Below, one piece after another: positions 1-3,000 of a stretch of 64,000 nt of DNA. Position numbers: made by a program. The stretch lies in the NCBI RefSeq assembly GCF_041886205.1, contig NZ_CP169029.1, one strand, 5' to 3'. The number at the start of each line of letters is the position of its first letter. Position 1 is the stretch's first letter. The stretch is from Escherichia coli. GTDB lineage: Bacteria; Pseudomonadota; Gammaproteobacteria; Enterobacterales; Enterobacteriaceae.

Positions 1-3000
1 AAACCAGGCGTGGCTTAAAACATGTAATTCGGGATTGTTATGCGTCGCAGCATTGACCAGCGGTAACCACTCATCACCAGTGATAATGGCTGCGGGCTGG
101 CAACTTGCCAGTAAACCCTGCAGTTTGGCGCTCCAGGAATCCCGCTGACCGACGCCCATTGGAATCGCCAACGGGACGGCGACTAAGCCGGCATACTGGC
201 AGGCAAAAAAAGCCTCTACGAACCCGCTACTGGTTTCGGCAATCAGCGCCACGCGATCGCCTTTTTTCAGGTTCAGCGATAACAACCGCTTCGCACCAGC
301 TTCGGCACGCGCTTTTAACGTCTGATATTCCAGTTGATCTTCAAGTTGGCAACGTCTGTCATAAAAATTCATTCCATCGCTACTCAGAGCGGCGTAGTCC
401 AAAGCATCAACCAGCGTTGGAAAATCGGCATAGCGCATAGGTAGGGAATGCGTAAAGATTTTATTAGACATATACACCACGAAAAAATTGGATATCAAAA
501 ATAAAATGACAATAATGCGGTGGATTATATAGGCATAAAAGATAAATGAGATAGTATTTTCATCAGTGTGAAAATGAACATTGATTTATATAATGAGTTT
601 GAGTTTTTTTGTTTTTATTGTGAATGATATTTAATTTATGAATATATTAAGAAGAAGCCTTGTCCGGTCGCCTTAAATCGACAAAAGGCATTGTGGCGCT
701 TCTGTGTAGTCGCTGACCCTATCGTAATCATTAATAAATACTATTTATTCGTCGTTTGTATCCATTGGGTTGATTATTAAGGTGCCGTTCGTTGCTGTTG
801 CAACCTGTTTGTCACCGTTAATTATTTGTTACCCACAGAACTATGGAATGCGATCTGCTGATGATTAAAATTGAAAAAGTAATTAATAAAAATGACCTTA
901 AGGCATTTATCGCTTTTCCGTCATCACTTTATCCCGACGATCCAAACTGGATACCCCCTTTATTCATTGAACGCAACGAGCATTTGTCTGCGAAAAATCC
1001 GGGGACGGACCATATCATCTGGCAGGCGTGGGTGGCAAAAAAAGCGGGGCAGATAGTTGGGCGTATTACCGCGCAAATAGATACCTTGCACCGCGAGCGT
1101 TACGGCAAAGATACCGGTCATTTCGGCATGATTGACGCCATTGATGATCCGCAGGTTTTTGCCGCGTTGTTTGGCGCAGCGGAAGCGTGGTTGAAGTCAC
1201 AAGGTGCAAGTAAGATCAGCGGTCCTTTCAGCCTGAATATCAATCAGGAAAGCGGATTACTGATTGAAGGTTTCGATACACCACCCTGTGCGATGATGCC
1301 GCACGGTAAACCGTGGTATGCCGCGCATATTGAACAATTGGGTTATCACAAAGGCATTGATTTACTGGCGTGGTGGATGCAGCGAACCGATCTCACTTTC
1401 TCTCCGGCGCTAAAAAAACTGATGGATCAGGTGCGTAAGAAGGTGACCATTCGCTGCATCAATCGCCAGCGGTTTGCCGAAGAGATGCAGATCCTGCGTG
1501 AGATTTTCAACTCTGGCTGGCAGCACAACTGGGGATTTGTGCCGTTTACCGAACATGAATTCGCGACCATGGGCGATCAACTTAAATATCTGGTGCCGGA
1601 CGATATGATCTACATCGCTGAGATTGATTCTGCACCCTGCGCGTTTATTGTCGGCTTGCCAAACATCAACGAGGCGATTGCCGATCTGAACGGATCGCTC
1701 TTTCCCTTCGGCTGGGCAAAATTGCTGTGGCGTTTGAAAGTCAGCGGTGTGCGAACTGCGCGAGTGCCGCTGATGGGCGTGCGGGACGAGTATCAGTTCA
1801 GCCGCATCGGCCCGGTGATTGCGCTGTTATTGATTGAAGCCTTACGCGATCCGTTTGCCCGCCGGAAGATCGATGCGCTGGAGATGTCATGGCTCCTCGA
1901 AACCAATACAGGCATGAATAACATGCTGGAACGCATTGGGGCAGAGCCGTACAAGCGTTACCGATTGTATGAAAAGCAAATTTAATACCAGATCCTGTTA
2001 AGCGCAGGGGCGGTCCCATCGCCCCTCGGGGAAAGGGTTAGGGTGAGGGGGAAAACTCTGCTCACATTCCCACCTTGTTCATCTCCAGCGGCACCGCCGA
2101 GCGAATCAAATGGTGGCCTTCCAGCTCGATATCGTGGAGATTCTTTTTCACGGTCCGCACATGATCGCGTGCTGCGCGCTGGGCGACGTGCGGCAGCCGC
2201 TGCAACACCGCGTTGTAGATCCGCGCATGCTGGCGATCGATCTGCTTTTTTTGCTGTGGTCGATGGTAGAGATTATTTACGCTGGCAAACACTGAATTAA
2301 ACATCAGATCGGTCAATGATTGCAGCGTAAACACCAGCACCTGATTGTGAGAAGCCTGACAAATGGCGAGATGGAAAGCGTGATCCAACTGAGCATGTTC
2401 GATCAGCGAAATCTCTTTGTTGTTCTCACTGGCGGCGAGCATTTTTTCATAACAGCGGGTTATCACAACAAAATCAGCCTGGGTTCCCAGCGTTGCCGCA
2501 AGCCTTGCCGATTCGCCCTCCAGCAATGCGCGAACGTCGAGCAGATCGTACAGCGTTCGCGGCTGCGTGCTGAACAGATGAATTAGCGGGCTGGTGTCCT
2601 GCACCCGATTAAGCCGTGCGACACGAGAATCGCGACCCTGCGCTGTTTCAATAATCCCGCGCCCGCGCAGCACGGTCAGTCCTTCACGCAGTGCGGAGCG
2701 TGAGAAGCCGAGCTTTTCACACAGTCGACGTTCCGAGGGAAGCGGCTGACCGACCTTCAGTACGCCGTCGATAATTAACCGTTCGATACTCTCTGCAACC
2801 ACTTCGCAAATAGGGCGACGTTCATCTTTCATTCCCGGACCTCGTACACAGGTAGGACCAATTTTTCTGTTCTTAACTCGCAAAACACGCACATCACGCA
2901 AGTGATTATGTTACATCGATTTAACATTAAGTTAACCAAGACAAGGTCACAGAGCTGGAAAAAAAATGGTCTGACCGGTAGCTAAAGAGATAGACGAAAA

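Follow-up and report, generated by a model that had tools for sequence, protein, structure and literature searches.

The yghO gene at positions 843..1985 (+) of the 64,000-nucleotide stretch of Escherichia coli DNA analysed here (contig NZ_CP169029.1; hereafter the window) is intact, and its product is predicted to carry out the ceramide-synthase step of a sphingolipid island, N-acylating the product of Spt with an acyl chain taken from an acyl thioester. We give this assignment a probability of about 0.8. It is the most likely reading of the orthology of YghO to Caulobacter CC_1154, the function of its family, its fold, its gene neighbourhood, the fusions in which its homologues take part, and the activity of the neighbouring enzymes. 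The gene, its cluster and the proposed function are already known, since the gene-to-function proposal was published in 2022, and the presence of IS5 at yghO in K-12 is likewise documented. The additions made here are modest: the precise junction in K-12, the chimeric N-terminus of the K-12 protein, the proportion of complete E. coli genomes with an intact island (~75%), a confident tandem-GNAT model of the protein, and the fusions of homologues with FAAL and hydroxylase.

An ORF listing of the window gave a single uninterrupted reading frame at 843..1985 (+), with an ATG start and encoding 380 amino acids. As originally predicted, this frame adjoins glcC (about 2062..2832, - strand), which lies downstream in convergent orientation and is followed by glcDEFGBA. 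RefSeq annotates a gene of the same extent as 'protein YghO' in other E. coli, among them strain wlxctx60, whose sequence is 99.96% identical to window positions 1-14100; the window is chromosomal E. coli DNA. These annotations, together with thousands of homologues, place the ORF far beyond chance; it is a real gene, the intact yghO of E. coli. In BL21(DE3) the same gene (product WP_001300526.1, ECD_02850) has the same length, locus and neighbours (aasR, cerR, acpR and spt), and 379/380 residues of the two proteins are identical. The sole change, I351L, is caused by a C at window nucleotide 1893 where BL21 has an A. It lies in a conserved SW[I/V]LE strand in which Leu is found in only 4/101 family members, though the change is conservative.

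YghO shares 79-82% identity with its orthologues in Serratia, Pantoea, Erwinia, Citrobacter and Pluralibacter, nearly all of which are 374 aa long. Because of this length, translation of yghO may in fact begin at a second in-frame ATG, that at 861 (MIKIEK...), which would give a protein of 374 aa. No clear Shine-Dalgarno sequence precedes either ATG (843 or 861).

YghO matched no Pfam or NCBIfam model, even at E<=1, and a search of PDB sequences with YghO alone returned nothing significant. When a profile of the family was compared with PDB, only weak GNAT matches were obtained, covering residues 307-379 (best 3tt2, E=0.0029), and homologues gave sub-threshold or borderline matches to Acetyltransf_1 in both halves. 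At E<=1e-3 the family counts 6,466 cluster representatives (clusters of 50% identity), and at E<=1e-30 it counts 1,118; most members are 370-400 aa in length. The predicted model of YghO, of high confidence (pLDDT 96.6), has a tandem GNAT fold. Two GNAT alpha/beta domains in one chain are also seen in the secondary-structure pattern and in alignments over 270-296 residues of tandem GNAT structures; they account for all 380 residues. The fold is that of a GNAT-type acyl-CoA N-acyltransferase, and the protein has no transmembrane segment. Canonical GNAT motif A was not recognisable in YghO by eye, and the residues that are invariant across the family are kept in the E. coli protein. The top structural matches listed were almost all GNAT acyltransferases or FemX-type transferases, with no DNA-binding protein among them. 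YghO is predicted to be a soluble or peripheral cytoplasmic enzyme of two GNAT domains. The tandem-GNAT structures of MAB_4324 (7Q3A), a Clostridium glucosamine N-acetyltransferase (5KF1), clavulanate ORF14 (2WPW) and mycothiol synthase MshD (1OZP) are only 12-15% identical to YghO and belong to enzymes that acetylate sugars or small amines. For the family of YghO and the bacterial ceramide synthases (bCerS, also called CerS or 'Aca') no solved structure was found. The chemistry proposed for YghO, in which an acyl thioester serves to N-acylate a sphingoid base, is also that of eukaryotic ceramide synthases (Lag1/CerS), but these are intrinsic membrane proteins with a multi-pass TLC-domain fold, unrelated in fold and topology to the soluble or peripheral GNAT protein YghO.

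Upstream of yghO, positions 1..471 (-) hold the 5′ part (157 N-terminal codons) of a gene for a fatty acyl-AMP ligase/acyl-ACP synthetase, the remainder of which lies beyond the window. The encoded product matches Pfam AMP-binding (1.7e-14) and NCBIfam PRK09192 'fatty acyl-AMP ligase' (3.9e-56). This ligase is EcFAAL, or AasR-Ec (ECD_02851 in BL21), and is transcribed divergently from yghO; the full-length wlxctx60 protein aligns over all 562 residues with PDB 3PBK, 'Fatty Acyl-Adenylate Ligase' (1247 bits). In intact E. coli loci yghO is divergent from aasR-cerR-acpR-spt, followed by paralogues of lptG and lptF and then by a ytfJ-like gene, a hypothetical gene and full-length yghQ. The yghQ product is Polysacc_synt flippase-like, and the kinase-like genes yghR/S/T adjoin, just outside the 10.6-kb island. 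It had been suggested from the sequence that yghO and the ligase gene form a small acyl-activation cluster. The ligase does belong with yghO, but the cluster is better described as a predicted five-gene dihydroceramide pathway, made up of yghO and aasR-cerR-acpR-spt and accompanied by LptF/G paralogues and a flippase-like gene, and YghO itself is predicted to transfer acyl groups rather than to activate them.

The same association recurs elsewhere. In Serratia liquefaciens and Pluralibacter gergoviae yghO is again divergent from AMP-binding, Epimerase, PP-binding and Aminotran_1_2 genes, in chromosomal surroundings that are otherwise different, and one distant 3.6-Mb genome has the same divergent arrangement. 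We compared nine non-fusion loci from different taxa. An Spt-type aminotransferase was encoded within 10 kb of the yghO homologue in 7/9, a pair of LptF_LptG paralogues was present in 8/9, and both AMP-binding and Epimerase genes in 5/9. A DAGK_cat kinase was found in 6/9 loci, all six of them non-enterobacterial; the enterobacterial island lacks this ceramide kinase and the head-group genes that accompany homologues elsewhere. Fused homologues join a YghO-like protein to FAAL (940 aa) or a fatty-acid hydroxylase to a YghO-like protein (630 aa), and the source name of one homologue is 'Hypothetical protein associated with Serine palmitoyltransferase'.

The BL21(DE3) locus was described by Padilla-Gómez et al. 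2022 (PMC9386255), who list 'aca: CC_1154, yghO ECD_02850', that is, yghO as orthologue of Caulobacter CC_1154, together with aasR (ECD_02851), epi (cerR, ECD_02852), acpR (ECD_02853) and spt (ECD_02854). In their Table S2, CC_1154 and ECD_02850 match with E=1e-107, 44% identity and 98% coverage. Their biochemical experiments established that AcpR is acylated by E. coli AasR, that acyl-AcpR is used by E. coli SPT, and that 3-oxo-sphinganine is made by E. coli AasR/AcpR/SPT. A 'ceramide-like' TLC spot in BL21, which is a co-migrating band only, was tentatively credited to ECD_02850 and ECD_02852 (PMC9386255). EcFAAL has been crystallised (PDB 3PBK) and its transfer of acyl groups to the partner protein EcACP published. 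In the papers searched we found neither an assay of the E. coli YghO enzyme nor a yghO knockout.

By the published figures, the Caulobacter crescentus ceramide synthase (bCerS/CerS; CC_1154 = CCNA_01212), an acyltransferase without transmembrane segments, is a full-length homologue of YghO; among 20 cluster representatives 41-49% identical to YghO, all bearing names of MAGs, there was no member from Caulobacter. CC_1154 is genetically required for ceramide. The Caulobacter enzyme is described as cytoplasmic and peripherally associated with the membrane, and as acylating 3-ketodihydrosphingosine before the periplasmic reduction by CerR; sphingolipid export has been proposed to run through the LptF2/LptG2 paralogues and a flippase. 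Like that of E. coli, the Caulobacter locus contains spt, acpR, cerR, aasR and the LptF2/LptG2 paralogues. Genes for a ceramide kinase and for the phosphoglycerate head-group enzymes are present in the Caulobacter locus but missing from the E. coli island. The role of the Caulobacter enzyme is backed by genetics and biochemistry, whereas that of E. coli YghO is predicted.

In the proposed E. coli pathway, AasR (EcFAAL) would adenylate a fatty acid and load it onto the dedicated carrier AcpR, and Spt would condense acyl-AcpR with serine to give 3-oxo-sphinganine. YghO would next attach a second acyl chain to the amino group of either 3-oxo-sphinganine or sphinganine, using an acyl thioester as donor (acyl-CoA, or perhaps acyl-ACP). 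Finally CerR, an epimerase-family reductase, would reduce the 3-keto group to yield dihydroceramide. The acyl-thioester site of YghO probably lies near residues 307-375, within the C-terminal GNAT domain. What we infer for E. coli YghO is its activity, its donor (acyl-CoA or acyl-AcpR) and acceptor (3-oxo-sphinganine or sphinganine), the order of the reactions and expression in vivo.

The K-12 gene is neither full length nor identical in extent to that of the window: in a BLAST comparison, homology with MG1655 begins only at window position 883. The segment at 843..882 (+), 40 nt comprising 13 codons and one base, is lost in K-12, and an IS5 end abuts 883. At the junction TTAATAAAAATGACC comes immediately after the IS5 terminal repeat CTTGTTCGCACCTTCC. 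In all, 8,383 bp of the intact locus are replaced in K-12 by the 1,195-bp IS5 (IS5LO). Gone with the first 40 nt of yghO and the whole 371-bp upstream region are aasR (FAAL), cerR (epimerase-family reductase), acpR (ACP) and spt (serine palmitoyltransferase), and also the lptG2 and lptF2 paralogues, the ytfJ-like gene, the hypothetical gene and the 3′ end of yghQ. On its two sides the K-12 IS5 is bordered by different 4-bp sequences, TTAG and TTAA, which fits an IS5-associated deletion and not a simple insertion. These results fit the loss of the island and of the yghO start from K-12 by an IS5-associated deletion of 8.4 kb. An independent paper lists yghO among genes carrying an internal IS5; a literature search found no description of the K-12 deletion in the context of this locus.

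The original prediction that the K-12 copy is disrupted and the window copy intact was therefore correct, the lesion being IS5 with the 8,383-bp deletion and the intact form being widespread. It had also stated that the K-12 counterpart is annotated as a disrupted gene, which does not hold literally: in the RefSeq record consulted, K-12 yghO (b2981, YP_009518815.1) is a 390-aa CDS without a pseudogene flag, named 'putative DNA-binding transcriptional regulator'. The first 24 residues of this protein, MMNPVLWLQMTNMISYQGLVRTFL, are read from the IS5 end, and residues 25-390 are the same as window residues 15-380 except for I/L at 351. K-12 YghO thus lacks the native first 14 residues and has a start supplied by IS5LO. 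The K-12 product name is unsupported for YghO. As the K-12 CDS is an IS5 chimera, ASKA clone JW5848 and other K-12-based resources do not represent native YghO. The locus again shows K-12 to be an atypical E. coli.

To count intact loci we used a 400-nt probe across the yghO 5′ junction, with a threshold of at least 80% coverage. The intact junction was present in 4,148/5,426 complete E. coli genomes (~76%), and approximately 395 of the 5,426, including those of the K-12 type, matched the probe only in part. The whole 10.6-kb island, counted where at least 80% of its length was covered, was found at 96-98% identity in 4,063 of the same 5,426 genomes (~75%). Intact yghO is the common form in E. 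coli. About three-quarters of complete E. coli genomes therefore carry a complete-looking ceramide pathway, the first three enzymes of which are proven to be active.

Other readings of YghO were weighed against a role as ceramide synthase. YghO could be the N-acyltransferase of the island without being a strict ceramide synthase, either using another amine acceptor or accepting acyl groups from acyl-AcpR only, with a product other than dihydroceramide; the other amine might be an amino-lipid or a long-chain base carrying a modification peculiar to Enterobacterales. The enterobacterial island would suit such a product in having no DAGK_cat or CDP-alcohol transferase genes, and instead the P-loop kinase-like yghR/S/T and yghQ. 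We nevertheless consider this unlikely, given the published match (44% identity, 98% of the length) to CC_1154, whose function is validated genetically, the presence of the same spt-acpR-cerR-aasR core in the same order, and the conservation of the family-wide invariant residues. That YghO is a DNA-binding transcriptional regulator, or a lysine or small-molecule acetyltransferase unrelated to its neighbours, appears highly improbable. The regulator is suggested by the K-12 name 'putative DNA-binding transcriptional regulator YghO' and by sources that call homologues 'DNA-binding protein', but Pfam and NCBIfam searches found no HTH or other DNA-binding domain in YghO. An acetyltransferase is suggested by the inclusion of YghO among the GNAT candidates of a lysine-acetyltransferase screen; the clone in that screen was, however, the IS5-chimeric K-12 form, and YghO is reportedly absent from the new acetyltransferases that the screen identified. 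Against both proposals, two GNAT domains fill all 380 residues, and genomic linkage and fusions point to lipid metabolism.

The gene and island could instead be intact but cryptic, silenced or limited to certain conditions, the ORF being merely retained or slowly decaying. The divergent aasR/yghO intergenic region at 472..842 (371 bp) is AT-rich, with a GC content of 32% compared with 50.6% for the window, and a scan of 400..2200 for sigma-70 consensus sequences and terminators found nothing above background. Promoters for both transcription units presumably lie in this region, a function that we infer. Both its composition and the lack of an above-background sigma-70 consensus would suit a silent locus, as would the lack of an intact junction, with no known phenotype, in K-12 and roughly 24% of complete genomes, and the outcome of our literature search, which found no report of natural sphingolipid production by wild-type E. 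coli. The retention of a 10.6-kb island at 96-98% identity in 4,063/5,426 genomes and the activity of the encoded AasR, AcpR and Spt make crypticity, in our judgement, quite improbable. It concerns expression and not molecular function, and is compatible with YghO being a ceramide synthase.

Most natural E. coli may make an unnoticed sphingolipid, a ceramide-derived lipid of the outer membrane, under some condition; we regard this as possible, with the odds somewhat against it. Such a lipid would have escaped notice because K-12, the reference strain, has deleted the pathway. Its head group would differ from that of Caulobacter, since the island lacks the kinase and head-group genes found there. 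Besides yghO and the aasR-cerR-acpR-spt operon, the island kept in about 75% of complete genomes encodes a dedicated LptF2/LptG2-type exporter and the flippase-like protein YghQ, and has the ytfJ-like gene and the hypothetical gene. Recent horizontal acquisition of the island was set aside, as its base composition gives no sign of foreign origin (genes of 41-55% GC, compared with 50.6% for the window).

On the other side of yghO, the gap before glcC contains an 85-bp insert at 1992..2076. Its predicted RNA folding is not unusual (z = -1.39) and no second copy occurs within the window; the insert is absent in both BL21 and K-12.

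IS5LO lies at positions 8147-9341 of the K-12 locus L001. The 4-bp flanks of the element are unequal, TTAG versus TTAA. A simple IS5 insertion into K-12 yghO is disfavoured by these flanks, which indicate that the K-12 lesion is an IS5-linked deletion. The first 24 residues of annotated K-12 YghO are IS5-encoded. ASKA clone JW5848, which appears in published screens, thus gives a chimeric YghO product.

The sequence of YghO in the window was compared with that of other strains. Nucleotide 1893 is C in the window, and A in BL21, K-12 and the closely related strain wlxctx60. The C produces the substitution I351L in the C-terminal GNAT domain, where the residue belongs to the conserved strand SW[I/V]LE; of 101 members of the YghO family, 4 have leucine at the corresponding position. 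Natural YghO-like fusions or duplications were represented by three proteins: P0193 (encoded at 8001-10823 on L008), P0132 and P0121. One is a fusion of 940 amino acids with a fatty acyl-AMP ligase at its C-terminus (AMP-binding and DIP2-like), another carries an N-terminal fatty-acid hydroxylase (630 amino acids), and one is a tandem duplication of 784 amino acids.

The part of the yghO island that lies outside the window, upstream of position 1, contains LptF/LptG paralogues, a YtfJ-family gene and full-length yghQ (L002, 1016-8352). This yghQ encodes 449 amino acids, and is truncated in K-12. Across nine loci of varied taxonomic origin, eight had an LptF/G pair accompanying the YghO homologue. 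No DAGK_cat ceramide kinase is present in the enterobacterial island, whereas YghO-homologue loci elsewhere do have DAGK_cat. Because of this absence, the P-loop kinase-like genes yghR/S/T, which adjoin the island, are candidates for putative roles in head-group chemistry.

An 85-bp GC-rich insert was found at window positions 1992-2076, exactly between the stop codons of the convergent genes yghO and glcC, in contrast to 9 bp at that spot in K-12. The insert is single-copy within the window, and was present in only 186 of 5,426 complete E. coli genomes. With it, annotated GlcC has 256 rather than 254 amino acids, and an altered C-terminal end. The predicted RNA fold of the insert was unremarkable (z = -1.39); it may resemble small boxC-like intergenic palindromes. 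K-12 glcC-yghO is among the 'excludon' pairs detected by RNA-seq, which are convergent and transcriptionally overlapping (PMC12288877). At window positions 1985-2062, the gap of this convergent pair is made wider by the 85-bp insert in this strain.

PADLOC detected a complete type I Wadjet anti-plasmid system, jetABCD, on the + strand at window positions 11920-18605 (JetA, 1.3e-272; JetB, 1.2e-116; JetC, E=0; JetD, 4.4e-193). It lies immediately downstream of glcA, a position occupied in BL21(DE3) by the type II secretion genes sslE-pppA-gsp. In the window jetC is a single open reading frame of 1,095 amino acids, whereas in the nearly identical wlxctx60 it is annotated as fragments. The window is colinear with wlxctx60 until approximately 19094, and beyond about 19.1 kb only short matches of 84-89% identity were observed. 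In wlxctx60, an island abuts tRNA-Phe. The loss of colinearity indicates that the window is from another strain, whose variable region near this island differs in content.
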